From assembly GCA_013115125.1 (NCBI GenBank), contig JABANN010000033.1, forward strand, positions 1 to 64,000: a stretch of DNA of 64,000 nucleotides. Direction: 5' to 3'. Both the position numbers and the translations under genes were made by a program. The notes below the pieces were generated by a model, which was given only the letters and a program-made list of their open reading frames with translations, was not told where the DNA came from and searched no databases. This document shows positions 35,159 to 47,111 of the stretch, piece after piece (within the stretch, counting starts at the first letter, position 1; each line of letters begins with the position of its first letter). This stretch comes from Perkinsus olseni (lineage: Eukaryota).

Positions 35159-42204
<7,046 letters not shown>

Positions 42205-42492
42205 ACGTCGTCCTCCCTGGATGGTGACGTAGTATATTAGTTGCTATCTACGCTCGTATCAGCTTTACGCAATTCTGATTCACAGTGTAGCTCTTAGTTT
42301 TTTTATGTTTATCATGTTTCCTGAAAACAGAAGGGCTAAGTGTTGACCTCGATGTATCGACGGCAACGACTGATCGGTAAAATGCGATGCCTACAAGAGA
42401 CGACGTCTCTAAGCTGTGGCTTGAGGTGTAAACCGTGCGGTACCATTCTGCAAGATATGCTTTCGAAATATTATTAGTTTTGATTTCCTCTC

Positions 42493-45400
42493 ATGACAAG
42501 GGAAGCCCTTCAGATGGTGCGGCTGCCGCTCCCTGATCTGCCTCACGACCCCTCCGCGATCGGAAGTCTGTTCCAAGCGTCAGGGACTGAGGCGTCGCCT
42601 GTGGGCCTTAGTGATGACAGCGTGGCCAAGGCTCGTGCTAAATTGGACAGGGCGCGGGACGAGATAGATTCTGTCGATATCGCTGAGTGGCGCTCCTTTT
42701 CTAAGAGACTCAATGCGCTAGATGGACTCACGAAGGAAGTGAGACTAAGCGTCTCCGTAGACTACTCACAGCCGTTCCTTAGATACGTTCCCGAGTGGGG
42801 GTCGATGCACCTCTGATTAACAACGCATGGGCCAAGTTCTACGAGGTACTGGCTGCCTTTGGAACGAGGATATTCGGTAGCTGCAAAACAGAGGAGAAAC
42901 TGCGGACCATGCACCTCTGCGAATGCCCTGGTGGATTCCTGGCAGCCCTCAACGTGTATCTGAGTAGGGACAACGCATTCTCTTATTGCAGCGTTGCACG
43001 CCTCGCCTCGGAAGCTCCTTCGTCCGACGGTGGCGTCGGTGTGATTTTCCTTATCAGACATAACTCGGCCGGAGTCCGTGCCGGAGTGGCAGTGGATGGG
43101 GGCGTCCTTGAATCCTTATCATGAGGCCAATGACCTCAATCAGATGGTGGACGATGATGCACTGTATAGACGGACGCAAGATCGCTGGTGGGGTCGTGTC
43201 GCTGGCCTCAACACTCTCACTGCGTCATGGTAGGTGGACCGGCCCAGATGGCTCAGGAGATATCCTCCAGCCGGGTGCTGCTCAAGACCTATGGTAAGAC
43301 CAAGGTCGCCACTTTTGAGGCAGCCCTCGCTGATGAAGGTTCGGGTCTCGGGCCGTCGATGGCAAATGCCAGCTTGTAACTGCGGATGGCAGTATGGACG
43401 TGCAGTACGATCCGAACAAGTAGCGCCGTTAGACGGTCAAGGTATCAGATGCGTCGCGCAGATGCTTTCTCGTCAGGCAAGAGAGCCTCTGCTTGCCGAT
43501 AATATTCCGGGAACTCCTTCTGGCCATCGGCCTTCTGCGTCCTGGTGGCACCTTCGTGATGAAGGCTTATTCTCTGCTGGATGACTCGACGGTAGCGGCC
43601 CTGAGTTTGGCAGGGTCCATGTTCGATGCTGTGGAGGTCGTGAAGCCGGTGGCCAGCAAGCCGGCCAACAGTGAAACGTAGGAGTGCTCTCTTAGGTTTC
43701 AATCATTGGCCTTGCGGCCCCGTTGGCGGTCTCCATCGTACGTTTTGTCAAGTCGTATCTAGAACTTAATATCCCTCGAATAACCCTGCCAGAATCCCCC
43801 TGCAAGGTACTGGGTTTGTCTAGGGTTTCGTGGGCTCACTAAGGACGATGGCGAGTGGCTCAGGCGTGCACTTGCTGTTGAAGGTGGGGTTGACAGGCCT
43901 GAGTGGTGATTATTCTGGACTGGAATTTCTTGTCCTTGGTTCGTTGGCAGATCCGCGGCTCGAGCTGAGATTGCCGGCGACCGCCAGCCAGTGCTCCAGG
44001 GAGTTCGTTCACGCTGCCCGCCAGACTGCAGTGAAGCTGGCTGACAGACAGGCGGAAGCCATCAAGTGCAAACTGTCCAGTTGGCGAGAGAGGGACGACT
44101 CTGATCCACAGCCCTACCCGAAGAAGCGGAAGACCGTCGAGAGTCTCAGCGGCGAGTACGTACGCATACTGATACCAGACGACTTCGATTTCACCTCGGT
44201 GAAGCCACTACTGCCGACTGACGCTGTCGGTCGTCTTGGTGGGGTGGACAGTAGACGAGCTAGTCGTGGTACGGTGGATGATAGGCGGCACGATCACGAG
44301 GAGGATGCGGCGCTCAAAGAGTTGCGAGACAGACTGCCAAACCATGCCACGTTCTGCATGGAGGCGGTCACTGGTCCGGCGAGTGAAGTTCCTCGAGTGG
44401 CTCAGGAAGAGGCAACCGATTGGCCGACGTTCATGCTGACTTCGGAGCAGCTGTCCGGGTGCCCGGGAGCTTACAAAAGAATGACGGGCTTCGCTCAGGA
44501 GAGTAATGCCAAGATCCCGAGCTCTAGTTCTGTTGTCTACAGCCCCTTGGTTTGGAACGCCAGCGAGCTGAAGGCTCTTGTTCGCAAAAGACTGCTGCGT
44601 TTCGAGAAGTTCCCGACAGTCCAACCTCGATCTCCCGGTGATGCTGTGGCGTGTTCCCTCGCAAACAACGAGCGTACCCGAGCTGTCATTTCCGAGCTTC
44701 TCAAAGTACATTCCTGCATCGACCCCGATCACGTGTCAACATGGGACACTCCCATCCACGGTGCCTCAGCAAAGGGAACAGCTGACGTCAGCGTTAAGAC
44801 GCTGGCAGATCGCAGTGCATTGGTCGACCCGTTCTCTCGTCAATTCGACCCGACAACCAGGGCTGAGCTGCTTCAGTCTGCCGTTGCCGGCGTAGAGGCG
44901 TTGACCCCTGGTGGCTCGAGCGTCCTACTGCTGGAGCTGAGTGGGGCTCCTGTGGCGGCGGTATGGCTCGGCAGTCTACTCTTCAGACTCGCCCAACTGT
45001 TTGGCAAACTGAAGTTAGTACAGCCTTGTTCAGGTAGGAGTCCTCTGAGAGCTTCTACACCGTCCGTGGCAACCATGCTTTAGATAACTCTGTCTTGAGA
45101 TGTAGCAGCTGGGTTGTGTGTATCGGACGCCTCAGTGGCGGCAGGTCGAAGTCCAGTCTGAGAGCTCTCCGAGGGGCTGCGGCATCTGGCGATGTATTCA
45201 CGCCTCTGGCTCCGACGACTTGCACACTGTGAGGATACTACTCTGCATCAGTGAGTGATTTCGGCTCTTCGGTTCAGATTCGCACCGTTCCGTCAGTGGC
45301 TCGGAGATGTTAACGAGATGTTCATAAGAAGTCAGGTCCGGTAAGTTCCCCTGACAAACAATCCCTTGTGGAATTCTTGGGCCTCGTAGGTACTGGTTGG

Positions 45401-46196
45401 CCTCACCCATAGAGGCCGACTCGAGGACCGTGGCCTTGAAATTTCTAGCGGAGCGAGGCATCAAGCGTTACACGTTCGAGGGAGCCGCCACGAGGACCGT
45501 TGGTGTATTCTTTGGTACGTTCGACCCAATCCATGAGAACCACTGGGCTATCGTTGAATATGCTCTCTCTAACGAGCTAGTCACTTCGGTGGTGCTGGTC
45601 GCCAATGCCGAGAACAACCCATCGAAGCCCAAGGCCACCGATCTCAAGACCAGACAAAGCCTACTGCGAGAACGTGTCAGAGTATCGGGTATGGAAGATA
45701 GAGTGACAGTCGCCACCGGGTACTCGAGGAACAGCCAGCGCTGGGCGGATCGGGAGGCTCTTGCCCACGCTCTGGTCGGCGACATGGCTGCCGCCACAAC
45801 CGACGTCCTAGTGCCGGTCATCTTGTGTGGAGAGGACTCTTTTATGAAAGCCTTGAAAGGGAGCACCCGAGACAAAACTACCCGTCATTTCATCGGCCTC
45901 GCCGAACTAGACACGAGCATCATAGTATTCCCAAGGTCCCCAAGTGCAGAAGCACTGAAGAACGCGGTAGGCGAGGTTCCGCCGAGGATACGTCGGAGGG
46001 TAAGTTGCCCGCCGTGGCATGTGCTGCTCACCGCTCTGCTCAGGTATCGGTGGCGGAAGGATACTCCGATCCGCATCCAGGGCTCTCTTCCTCCCGAACA
46101 CGAGCTGCCATAGCCGAGTCCTCGGGATTGGAGGCTCCTGGTGTAGACCAATCCCTCCTCGCCTTTATACGTGAACGTAAACTTTATCAACAATAG
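42493..46196 (+). CDS. CMTR2: Cap2 mRNA 2'-O-methyltransferase (CMTR2/FTSJD1-like) with a predicted C-terminal NadD/NMNAT-like nucleotidyltransferase domain
   Basis: NAWAKFYE, HLCECPGGF, SLNPYHEAN, VTADGS, GGTFVMK, KPVASKPANSE(T)YW give the K-D-K-E tetrad. Three 49-50 bp GT-AG introns join this in frame to FFGTFDPIHENH..CGEDS..LSSSRTR..FIRERKLY. Confidence 0.8.
45390..46196 (+). CDS. NadD/NMNAT-like (cytidylyltransferase superfamily) domain exons, probably the C-terminal part of the CMTR2 gene
   Basis: GTFDPIHENH (HxxH motif), NPSK, GEDS, SSSRTR; intron 46000-46043; no in-frame ATG before the HxxH motif. Confidence 0.8.
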
Positions 46197-46273
46197 TGTC
46201 GTCAGTGCCCGTCAGTTGAGTTCGTCAATAAGCTCGGAAGATGCACAGATTCGACATATTTAGTAAAAGACTA

Positions 46274-46880
46274 ATGGCTGTCTATGAGGAGTCCCCTGTG
46301 AGACCGAGACGAATCGGTTTGATCTACACGCCGACGCCCACACTTGTGCTAGAGTTCGCAAAACTGAACGGCAGACTGTACCATAGGCGTATGCCGTTGC
46401 CGCGGCTGAGTCCCGTCTCTGACCCGGCTGAAGTTGTTCAAAGGCTTAGAAATAGATTCCAAGATTACCTCCCACAGCACTTGGTGTCAGAAGAGCAGGT
46501 GAGGACACGGCGCTCGTTGTTACACTGCTTACGACGAAGCTTGTGTTCAGTTGCTCGGACTCGTGAAGAGACTGAGAGAACACGCGCCCCGACGGAGTAG
46601 TCAGGAAGCAACGGTTGGGATTACATCCGACACGACAGATTTTAACAAGTTGAATAATGACGAACTTTCGAAAGCGAAGGCCAGAATGGATGTCGCCTTC
46701 GAACAGAACCAAGTGAGATTCGATTGAGCCTCCCACGGGGATGGAGGGTTTCTGAATTAGGTGCATCCCGGTGACCCTGACTTTATCTACGATCTCGAAG
46801 TGTCGTTTGACGGGGGCGCGGGCACTGGGAAGGCTAACGACTGGGATGAGTGGAGCGAAGAGGAGGAAGTGGTGCTGTAA
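46274..46880 (+). CDS. CEP19: Centrosomal protein CEP19-like, spliced
   Basis: RPRRIGLIYTPTPTLVLEF..LYHRRMPL; DLNKL-like FNKLNNDELSKAKARMDVAFEQNQ; PGDPDFIYDLEVSF..DWD. Confidence 0.8.
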
Positions 46881-47111
46881 CATTCGTGAACGCCAGTCAG
46901 TTGCAAAACTGTTGACTCACCGCGATCCCCCCCCCCATCACCCCCATCCAATGTTGAGTTTTCTGTCGTAGAACTCGTGGATGCTGGGGAGATTCTCAAC
47001 ATTGGACAGGGGGTGAGGGGGAGAGACGACAATGGTGGCAATGAAGCACGCCCACTGACGTACTGACTTATGAAATTGACTGGCCTTGCGTTGGACGTTA
47101 AATGCTGCAAA

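Follow-up and report, generated by a model that had tools for sequence, protein, structure and literature searches.

A CMTR2-type cap methyltransferase of Perkinsus olseni carrying a C-terminal NadD-like nucleotidyltransferase domain

Multidomain capping enzymes include trypanosome TbCgm1 (guanylyltransferase and N7-methyltransferase), trypanosome TbCe1 (kinase and guanylyltransferase, in recapping) and poxvirus D1. These enzymes, like bluetongue virus VP4, use a covalent lysyl-NMP guanylyltransferase of the ligase superfamily. To our knowledge, a covalent lysyl-GMP guanylyltransferase serves in all known cellular m7G capping, only RNA polymerases install NAD-type caps, at initiation, and no role in capping is known for HIGH-type Rossmann-like enzymes. 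The literature also states in general terms that bi- and tri-functional capping-enzyme fusions exist. Further along the pathway acts CMTR2 (FTSJD1, hMTr2), a cap2 ribose 2'-O-methyltransferase; Werner et al. 2011 (PMC3113572) list two hMTr2 orthologues for P. marinus. The gene described here, found in a 64,000-nucleotide window of Perkinsus olseni DNA, encodes a protein that has in common with CMTR2 an FtsJ/RFM domain with a K-D-K-E tetrad and possibly, judging from weak matches, a second RFM-like region after the catalytic domain, but it differs in possessing an extra C-terminal NadD-like nucleotidyltransferase (NT) domain of ~250 amino acids. It and its relatives resemble TbCgm1, TbCe1, D1 and VP4 in placing what would be successive cap-forming or cap-modifying activities on one polypeptide.

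The structure of the gene (Table 1) follows from intron-free RNA contigs of two sequencing runs from different studies, X2 and X6 (the latter on record as RNA-Seq), in which 11 GT..AG introns are spliced out. A single X2 contig of 3054 nt spans 42476–46201 with all 11 introns absent; two contigs of X6 show these joints as well, and one of the two crosses those placed at 45031/45082, 45228/45278, 45339/45389 and 45998/46043. The three introns named in the original prediction (45034–45083, 45229–45277, and 45341–45389 with a GTAAGT donor) are absent from the contigs of both runs, with 0 other letters. The joint at 45340/45390 is likewise present in X6 and X2, the contigs using the 45341–45389 intron instead of an alternative donor at 45336. 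Once spliced at these RNA-verified joints, the frame is open from the ATG at 42493 to the TAG at 46194–46196 (1009 codons, 1009 amino acids), with no stop codon between the CMTR2 and NT parts; the frame reads ..FIRSQVR/YWLASPIEAD.. and runs on into FFGTFDPIHENH. The CMTR2 frame does, as had been proposed, run straight into the NT frame. A minor isoform that kept intron 8, for example, would have a stop codon at 45081–45083.

At the 5' end, one X6 contig carries nine loose letters, CTTGGCTCA, preceding 42476. Together with AG, these correspond in this one contig of one run to the 3' end of PmaSL1, the Perkinsus spliced leader, in its sequence as printed in PMC3101222. The mRNA of the fusion gene is spliced-leader trans-spliced and made up of 12 exons, the leader being read from that one contig.

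Table 1. Features of the P. olseni fusion gene, in window coordinates
Feature	Position	Strand	Evidence
AG acceptor, spliced-leader trans-splicing; mRNA body from 42478	42476..42477	+	one X6 contig
5' UTR, 15 nt	42478..42492	+	RNA contig
Exon 1; codes for residues 1-82 from start codon 42493-42495	42493..42738	+	RNA joint 42738/42783, open frame
Exon 2; FtsJ/RFM catalytic domain begins; K100 = 42834-42836	42783..42963	+	joints; Pfam FtsJ E 0.0099, exon alone
Exon 3	43058..43187	+	RNA joints
Exon 4	43234..43293	+	RNA joints
Exon 5; D222 = 43385-43387	43339..43419	+	RNA joints
Exon 6; FtsJ C-terminal half; K262 = 43562-43564, E299 = 43673-43675	43477..43677	+	joints; Pfam FtsJ E 3.5e-8
Exon 7	43807..43883	+	RNA joints
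Exon 8; linker and most of putative second RFM-like (non-catalytic) CMTR2 domain, from ~44640	43951..45033	+	joints; weak domain matches
Exon 9; putative second RFM-like domain ends	45084..45228	+	RNA joints 45033/45084, 45228/45278
Exon 10; 63-nt linker, CMTR2 part to NT part; Met749 = 45318-45320	45278..45340	+	both joints within single X6, X2 contigs
Exon 11; NadD-like NT core; HENH = 45532-45543; K835, D905, R938	45390..45999	+	joints; Pfam CTP_transf_like E 2.6e-5; profile, fold
Exon 12; NT C-terminal subdomain; SSSRTR = 46086-46103; ..FIRERKLY; stop 46194-46196	46044..46196	+	RNA joint 45999/46044

It is very probable that this fusion of CMTR2-type and NT parts is real; the RNA contigs attest to its presence, alongside which minor isoforms may occur. 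The opposite reading, in which the parts are two separate products, the joined form is a read-through or contig-assembly artefact, and the NT part starts from Met749 (45318), from Met 45691 or after internal trans-splicing, is highly improbable. A contig over two genes is indeed no proof of one transcript, an in-frame ATG is available at 45318–45320, and the public P. olseni entries divide the parts between two partial proteins, P0100 of 688 aa and P0002 of 144 aa. Both entries, however, are annotated as partial, their contigs being 3455 and 627 nt long, and P0002, which starts at window position 45718, was rejected as a stand-alone NT protein initiated at Met 45691. A start at 45691 would, moreover, drop the HxxH motif, and Met749 is replaced by Thr in the P. 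chesapeaki orthologue and is therefore a non-conserved start. The earlier statement that the NT frame has no ATG before 45691 holds for exon 11; it leaves out Met749 in exon 10. The absence of a stop after RNA-verified splicing, the identity of the joints in runs of two studies and the collinearity of homologues from other genera over the junction also speak against two products.

The P. chesapeaki orthologue, P0001, is 68% identical over residues 1–983 and in frame over the junction. This model also takes in a CEP19-like downstream gene, with which it appears to be over-merged; since it may be an over-merging prediction, we down-weighted it as independent proof, and the argument for the fusion is carried by the RNA contigs and by in-frame conservation. 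The proposed pairing of a CMTR2-type with a NadD/NMNAT-like part stands on the RNA contigs, on its retention in P. chesapeaki and on dinoflagellate homologues that are collinear over the junction, and Pfam assigns the expected domains, FtsJ to exons 2 and 6 and CTP_transf_like to exon 11.

The best named homologues of the N-terminal part are CMTR2 proteins (E 1e-60 to 1e-40), with Anopheles CMTR1 at 5.9e-4, which places the part nearer to CMTR2 than to CMTR1; a score of ~1e-52 is, however, also reached by rotifer proteins whose G-patch and WW domains give them a CMTR1-like architecture. The K-D-K-E tetrad is intact, K100, D222, K262 and E299 each matching the majority residue, which is found in 48, 50, 48 and 52 of 56 aligned rows, respectively. 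The FtsJ family involved is PF01728, which in P0001 covers residues 94–307 (E 1.3e-20). Residues ~90–310 would be expected to form an active CMTR2-type cap-adjacent ribose 2'-O-methyltransferase, and residues ~560–735 may form a second, non-catalytic RFM-like domain typical of CMTR2. The latter region has no Pfam match; model residues 602–760 match the second domain of Cryptosporidium muris CMTR2 weakly (E 0.001), and residues 623–723 give a weak match (E 0.14) to the catalytic domain (230–328) of the P. olseni orthologue P0100, which hints at a possible internal repeat within the CMTR2 part. All 48 animal and apicomplexan CMTR2 homologues examined lack the NT domain.

For the C-terminal part, a profile of the NT family compared with known structures matches NadD (7.7e-16), NMNAT (1.8e-9) and PPAT (6e-8); its alignment to NadD is full-length and includes the C-terminal ..LY. 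An AF2 model of the NT domain of the P. chesapeaki orthologue, 81% identical to exon 11, has a pLDDT of 90.1, and all matches listed by Foldseek against the PDB are NadD or NMNAT (best E 3.9e-8, TM 0.5–0.72); a search of the ESM Atlas returned only generic CTP_transf_like clusters, at 0.91. Catalytic residues are nearly invariant: H804, H807 and K835 are each kept in 74 of 76 members, D905 and R938 in 76/76, and S974 and R979, both carried by the SSSRTR motif, in 73/76 and 72/76. The Perkinsus domain therefore has the fold of bacterial NadD and eukaryotic NMNAT, together with their HxxH and SxxxR motifs and the ..LY end, but differs from them in being built into cap-enzyme polypeptides and in the family's general preference for HENH over HxGH (third position N, not G, in 56–58 of 76 members). 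The cut-off of the NadD equivalog model (NCBIfam TIGR00482, 112.45) is missed by exon 11 (28.7 bits) and P0001 (29.1 bits), and because these scores lie so far below it, we file the domain as NadD-like and not as NadD.

The simplest biochemical reading of such a fold is that the domain is an NMN/NaMN adenylyltransferase for NAD synthesis, tethered to cap enzymes, with no action on RNA and at most a part in local NAD supply or sensing. We consider this rather unlikely, in spite of the profile and fold matches (to NadD and NMNAT alone among the fold matches listed), the intact ATP-binding motifs and the NadD-like ..LY end. Apart from the low equivalog scores, the pyridine-stacking position may argue against it. 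In E. coli NadD, W117 stacks the pyridine ring; opposite this residue the NT family has small or polar, non-aromatic residues in a profile alignment; the preceding column is aromatic in 60/76 members.

The company that the domain keeps is a further argument against NAD synthesis. A single-sequence homologue search for longer proteins recovered P0001 only, and its profile version added few; the family became apparent in an exhaustive HMMER search of 1.84 billion proteins, which yielded 91 NT relatives at E 1e-3. As so few proteins reach this threshold, the abundant bacterial NadDs must mostly have gone unmatched. The weak end of the match list does contain NadD-like proteins of the ordinary kind and a single NAD-synthase fusion (P0086), which would favor the NAD reading; also among the 91 is P0060, a bacterial surface protein that contains HYR and PKD repeats and was set aside as a chance match. 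Recurrent partners are not NAD-pathway enzymes but a cap N7-methyltransferase and an NMP kinase: PF03291 (mRNA cap guanine-N7 methyltransferase) occurs in 19/91 relatives, an adenylate-kinase-like domain in 17/91, and both in 4. The methyltransferase partner is RNMT-like and mostly lies C-terminal of NT (N-terminal in P0035, P0036, P0065, P0070 and P0085), and the kinase is AK1/UMP-CMP-kinase-like; in Symbiodinium natans, kinase, NT and N7-methyltransferase are combined within 614 aa. The pairing of a HIGH-type nucleotidyltransferase with a P-loop kinase is familiar from NadR (NMNAT and ribosylnicotinamide kinase) and COASY (PPAT and dephospho-CoA kinase), but the kinase of the NT relatives belongs to neither of these two types and is often accompanied by the cap N7-methyltransferase. 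The P. olseni protein differs from NadR and COASY in being without a kinase domain.

Links to CMTR2 recur as well. In 17 of the 91 relatives, BLAST HSPs start upstream of NT, in the second CMTR2 domain, and four of these 17 also match the N-terminal RFM domain; dinoflagellate homologues give single HSPs from ~residue 600 through NT. In the tree, the Perkinsus domain falls into a 25-row clade (SH-aLRT 94) with other CMTR2-linked forms. Named members come from Perkinsus and dinoflagellates, most of the family being metagenome or transcriptome records, so that its taxonomic range is read from a few named entries. On these sequences, NT is a distinct protist clade that seems to be habitually built into cap-modifying proteins, and the architecture is, among the proteins examined, apparently confined to the Perkinsus/dinoflagellate lineage. 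Among the explanations offered in the original prediction, we rank the simple fusion of neighbours lowest, given these repeated fusions to cap enzymes and the near-invariant catalytic residues. The suggestion of novelty holds in part: no description of a cap-methyltransferase/NadD-like fusion was found in the literature searched, but public protein databases already contain the architecture: a P. chesapeaki model has it under the name 'FTSJD1', and in dinoflagellates it appears in proteins entered as 'mRNA (guanine-N7)-methyltransferase'.

Another possibility is that the domain is a non-catalytic module for binding the cap dinucleotide or a nucleotide cofactor, with a part in positioning or regulating the methyltransferase, much as proposed for the inactive GTase-like domain of CMTR1 and for the inactive RFM domain of CMTR2. 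Werner et al. 2011 (PMC3113572) provide a precedent in describing hMTr1 and hMTr2 as fused to GTase-like and MTase-like domains that have been inactivated, and the dinucleotide product of NadD resembles a cap (GpppN). Retention of the catalytic His, Lys, Asp, Arg and Ser in 72–76 of 76 members is, however, unlike an inactivated domain, and the dinoflagellate long forms keep the NT motifs although their CMTR2-like tetrad has decayed, which makes a purely binding role unlikely.

The chances that NT instead acts in RNA 5'-end or cap chemistry are, we estimate, about even; the case is one of guilt by association with cap enzymes. Residues ~757–1009 would form a catalytically competent NadD-like (HxxH/SxxxR) nucleotidyltransferase, whose nucleotidyl transfer would make or remake a 5'-5' pyrophosphate-type link at the 5' end of an RNA, either spliced-leader RNA or mRNA, after which the adjoining methyltransferase domains would complete the cap. 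We infer the NT activity itself, the RNA 5' end as acceptor or donor instead of NMN or NaMN, and the nucleotide used. Against a cap role stands that every one of the nearest relatives with a solved structure produces NAD or NaAD, so that NMN/NaMN adenylylation is the default chemistry. The review PMC8131947 mentions unpublished tests by its authors in which E. coli NadD and NadR neither capped nor decapped RNA. An Amphidinium preprint reports that dinoflagellates hold three canonical capping enzymes, each as its own ORF, and a second route would thus be unneeded for basic capping; the preprint also states that all mRNAs of the lineage receive a trans-spliced, heavily methylated leader.

A more specific form of the cap role, put forward tentatively and itself rather improbable, is that the HENH-type NT is a new RNA 5'-end capping or recapping enzyme that joins a nucleotide to the 5' phosphate without a covalent enzyme-NMP intermediate. 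Candidate reactions would be GTP + ppRNA, GDP + pppRNA, or NMN + pppA-RNA, the last yielding an NAD-type cap; the diphosphate substrate could come from the NMP-kinase-like domain fused in relatives, and completion of the cap could fall to the fused N7- and 2'-O-methyltransferases. The set of kinase, nucleotidyltransferase and methyltransferase in the NT relatives parallels the recapping logic of the multidomain capping enzymes. Unlike in TbCgm1, TbCe1, D1 and VP4, the transferase is HIGH-type Rossmann-like, and no guanylyltransferase domain of the ligase superfamily was found in the proteins scanned: the mRNA_cap_enzyme Pfam domain (covalent Lys-GMP guanylyltransferase) is absent from the window's exons, P0001 and the 91 NT relatives.

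For P. olseni, the gene models are corrected, the database entries being fragments. More broadly, a NadD/NMNAT-fold domain with intact catalytic residues lies physically inside cap methyltransferases throughout the lineage, which supplies a concrete protein for assay. Should NT make nothing but NAD, its recurrent joining to cap enzymes would still connect NAD metabolism with mRNA cap maturation in an unexplained way. If the capping reading is true, a Rossmann-type capping route that operates post-transcriptionally would be seen for the first time, in Perkinsus and dinoflagellates. The fusions in both groups point to what may be a hitherto undescribed enzyme reaction at the 5' ends of RNA.

The methyltransferase and nucleotidyltransferase (NT) frames are joined in mature RNA. 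A search of public sequencing runs returned 20 with part of this stretch, four of which were compared over 42000-47000; two of them, from different studies (X2, and X6, which is recorded as RNA-Seq), gave intron-free contigs with 0 letters different from the window. These contigs define 11 GT..AG introns of 44-129 nt (median 49), including all three that the original prediction had proposed, and the fusion is not broken by the alternative donor at 45336, as the contigs use a different one. A single X2 contig of 3054 nt spans 42476-46201, while X6 covers 42476-44969 in one contig and runs from the end of exon 8 across exons 9-11 into exon 12 in a second. The contigs of both runs end at most 5 nt past the stop codon (46197-46201), with no loose poly(A) letters. 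Joined at the RNA joints, the exons give 1009 open codons and a TAG stop at 46194-46196; the FtsJ and CTP_transf_like pieces expected from the sequence were recovered by three-frame translation and single-exon Pfam scans. An X6 contig carries nine extra letters 5' of 42476; joined to the AG at 42476-42477, these are identical to the 3' end of PmaSL1, the 22-nt P. marinus spliced leader as printed in PMC3101222. Trans-splicing of the mRNA thus takes place 15 nt ahead of the ATG at 42493.

Features of the fusion gene and its neighbours
Feature	Position	Strand	Evidence or remark
Methionine synthase gene (cobalamin-dependent), 3' end	41543-42204	+	Met_synt_B12 activation-domain matches (41543-42201), E down to 4.9e-21; directly upstream
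Fusion gene	42493-46196	+	flanked by two other genes
Introns 1-4	42739-42782, 42964-43057, 43188-43233, 43294-43338	+	RNA contigs
Introns 5-8	43420-43476, 43678-43806, 43884-43950, 45034-45083	+	RNA contigs
Introns 9-11	45229-45277, 45341-45389, 46000-46043	+	RNA contigs
FtsJ piece	42783-42962	+	Pfam single-exon scan, E 0.0099
FtsJ piece	43433-43678	+	Pfam single-exon scan, E 3.5e-8
CTP_transf_like piece	45391-45999	+	Pfam single-exon scan, E 2.6e-5
CEP19-like gene	46241-46880	+	downstream; begins 44 nt past the fusion-gene stop codon

The downstream intergenic gap, from stop codon to next ATG, is very short. The CEP19-like gene has zero depth in the X6 and X2 contigs, which is among the arguments that these represent RNA rather than DNA. 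On the other side, a 42-nt intron of the methionine synthase gene (42026-42067, joint as read) is spliced out in the same two runs; that a methyl-cycle enzyme adjoins the gene of a SAM-dependent methyltransferase may be coincidence.

Database proteins from the genus agree with the spliced model. Two partial P. olseni proteins match its ends, with 93.8% identity over residues 1-686 (688 aa) and 97.9% over residues 866-1009 (144 aa), and the P. chesapeaki orthologue P0001 (1178 aa) shares 68% identity with residues 1-983 and stays in frame across the junction. P0001 also carries a CEP19 domain at 1021-1163, and its gene model probably merges the neighbouring CEP19-like gene; as an over-merged prediction, it is not counted as independent proof of the fusion. 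The in-frame conservation of the linker exons in P0001 is counted as support. The sole in-frame ATG between the two parts, Met749 (45318-45320), is Thr in P. chesapeaki. The fusion is very probably real, with the contigs leaving room for rare isoforms.

By homology, the N-terminal two thirds of the protein belongs to the CMTR2 family, with predicted activity on the second nucleotide. With the P0001 catalytic region as query, the named matches were animal and apicomplexan cap-specific 2'-O-methyltransferase 2 proteins (E 1e-60 to 1e-40), and Anopheles CMTR1 reached E 5.9e-4. Rotifer proteins with a CMTR1-like architecture (G-patch, FtsJ, WW; P0104-P0108, P0116, P0117, P0130 and P0135) scored ~1e-52, as strongly as true CMTR2s, which leaves CMTR2 and CMTR1 not perfectly separated. 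In a 56-row alignment, the window protein and P0001 both keep the tetrad K100-D222-K262-E299 intact. Weak matches point to a second, inactive RFM-like domain: the second domain of Cryptosporidium muris CMTR2 matches at E 0.001, and the catalytic domain of the 688-aa P. olseni protein matches model residues 623-723 at E 0.14. In Werner et al. 2011 (PMC3113572), the second domain of hMTr2 is described as inactive and two hMTr2 orthologues are listed for P. marinus; the words nucleotidyltransferase and adenylyltransferase are absent from the main text.

The NT, forming the C-terminal third of the protein, resembles NadD and NMNAT in fold and motifs, yet falls outside the curated family: NadD models rank top in NCBIfam, but score 28.7-29.1 bits where the cut-off is 112.45. 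A profile of 14 NT family members matched NadD structures over nearly the full length (E 7.7e-16), followed by NMNAT (1.8e-9), PPAT (6e-8) and NadR (2.8e-6). An AlphaFold2 model of the P. chesapeaki NT domain, built without the last helix, has a mean pLDDT of 90.1, and every Foldseek PDB match listed is a NadD or an NMNAT (best E 3.9e-8, TM 0.5-0.72). The family motif is HENH, where NadD has HxGH. Among 76 aligned NT domains, D905 and R938 are invariant (76/76 each), H804 with H807 and K835 are each kept in 74, S974 in 73 and R979 in 72. We regard the NT as a NadD-like outlier rather than an orthodox NadD, unrelated to the canonical guanylyltransferase; the conserved residues make it probably an active enzyme, and we hold that view with good confidence.

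When exon 11 was searched exhaustively with HMMER against 1.84 billion representatives (E <=1e-3), only 91 proteins were returned, mostly unnamed transcriptome or metagenome records beyond those named here. Pfam scans (34 proteins at E 1e-3, the other 57 at E 1e-5) identified a cap guanine-N7 methyltransferase domain (N7MT, PF03291) in 19/91, an adenylate-kinase-like P-loop domain in 17/91 and both in four; the fused kinase is nearest AK1 and UMP-CMP kinases, and the fused methyltransferase nearest human RNMT. PF03291 is mostly C-terminal of the NT, as in P0019 (1539 aa; FtsJ, NT, PF03291), and N-terminal of it in P0035, P0036, P0065, P0070 and P0085, which indicates more than one origin or rearrangement of the pairing. 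When the spliced model was used in BLAST, 17 of the 91 aligned from CMTR2 domain 2 directly into the NT, including four long forms that also match the N-terminal RFM domain. Named architectures include CMTR2-like + NT + N7MT in Alexandrium monilatum and in Prorocentrum cordatum / Polarella glacialis, NT + kinase in Effrenium voratum, and ADK + NT + N7MT in Symbiodinium natans (614 aa). None of 48 animal and apicomplexan CMTR2-like proteins matched the NT profile, even at E 10.

In a maximum-likelihood tree of 76 NT domains, built quickly and without bootstraps so that its deep branches are uncertain, the two Perkinsus rows fall in a 25-row clade (SH-aLRT 94) with a 10-row long-form group (PF03291 in nine) and 13 shorter proteins, mostly 'domain 2 + NT'; the kinase-bearing forms are its sister group. 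For this tree, 17 of the 91 proteins, covering <150 of 238 profile positions, were left out, and two rows were added, P0001 and the window model. An outgroup clade consists of proteins of ~406-454 aa (P0043, P0052, P0059, P0066, P0067, P0068, P0075, P0077 and P0084) with the NT at the C-terminus and a ~240-aa N-terminal region without a Pfam match.

Seven long CMTR2-like + NT + N7MT forms, the named ones dinoflagellate, were aligned (P0006, P0011, P0013, P0014, P0017, P0019 and P0020). Their tetrad is degenerate, K100 and K262 being kept in 0/7, D222 in 1/7 and E299 in 3/7, although these N-termini are divergent, their alignment is uncertain and 3/7 lack a BLAST-detectable N-terminal match. 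The same proteins retain the NT motifs together with an N7-methyltransferase domain. Their CMTR2-like N-terminal domain appears catalytically dead. If the alignment holds, selection kept the NT and released the 2'-O-methyltransferase site, which is hard to reconcile with the NT being a passenger.

HIGH-type transferases attach an NMP to a phosphate acceptor, releasing PPi; this is the established chemistry of NadD, NMNAT and PPAT. For an NT set between a diphosphate-making kinase and methyltransferases acting on GpppN-RNA, the simplest coherent role would be to form or repair a 5'-5' pyrophosphate-type link at the RNA 5' end. The reaction could be GTP + ppRNA, GDP + pppRNA or NMN + pppA-RNA, with the fused domains methylating afterwards; the substrate in Perkinsus would plausibly be spliced-leader RNA or trans-spliced mRNAs. 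For one dinoflagellate, a preprint (10.1101/2024.02.20.581179) describes both an m7G cap and hypermethylation of the leader. The chances of a role in RNA 5'-end or cap chemistry seem to us evenly balanced, and it is unlikely that the NT is a true capping enzyme. A cap-linked role is weakened by the closest solved relatives, all of which make NAD or NaAD. Also counting against it, unpublished tests of RNA capping by E. coli NadD and NadR are cited as negative in PMC8131947, and dinoflagellate canonical capping enzymes are described, in the same preprint, as separate ORFs 'without fusions'.

The predicted joining of a Cap2 methyltransferase to a NadD/NMNAT-like domain is confirmed, and its interpretation as a genuine fusion is supported and extended; it may couple cap maturation to NAD metabolism or to non-canonical capping. 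The architecture was already present, unremarked, in public databases. Multidomain capping enzymes are well known; to our knowledge none contains a HIGH-type nucleotidyltransferase, and a literature search excluding supplementary files found none. What is new here is a lineage-restricted NT clade repeatedly fused to N7MT, CMTR2-like scaffolds and an NMP-kinase-like domain, and there is a real chance that it represents something categorically new.
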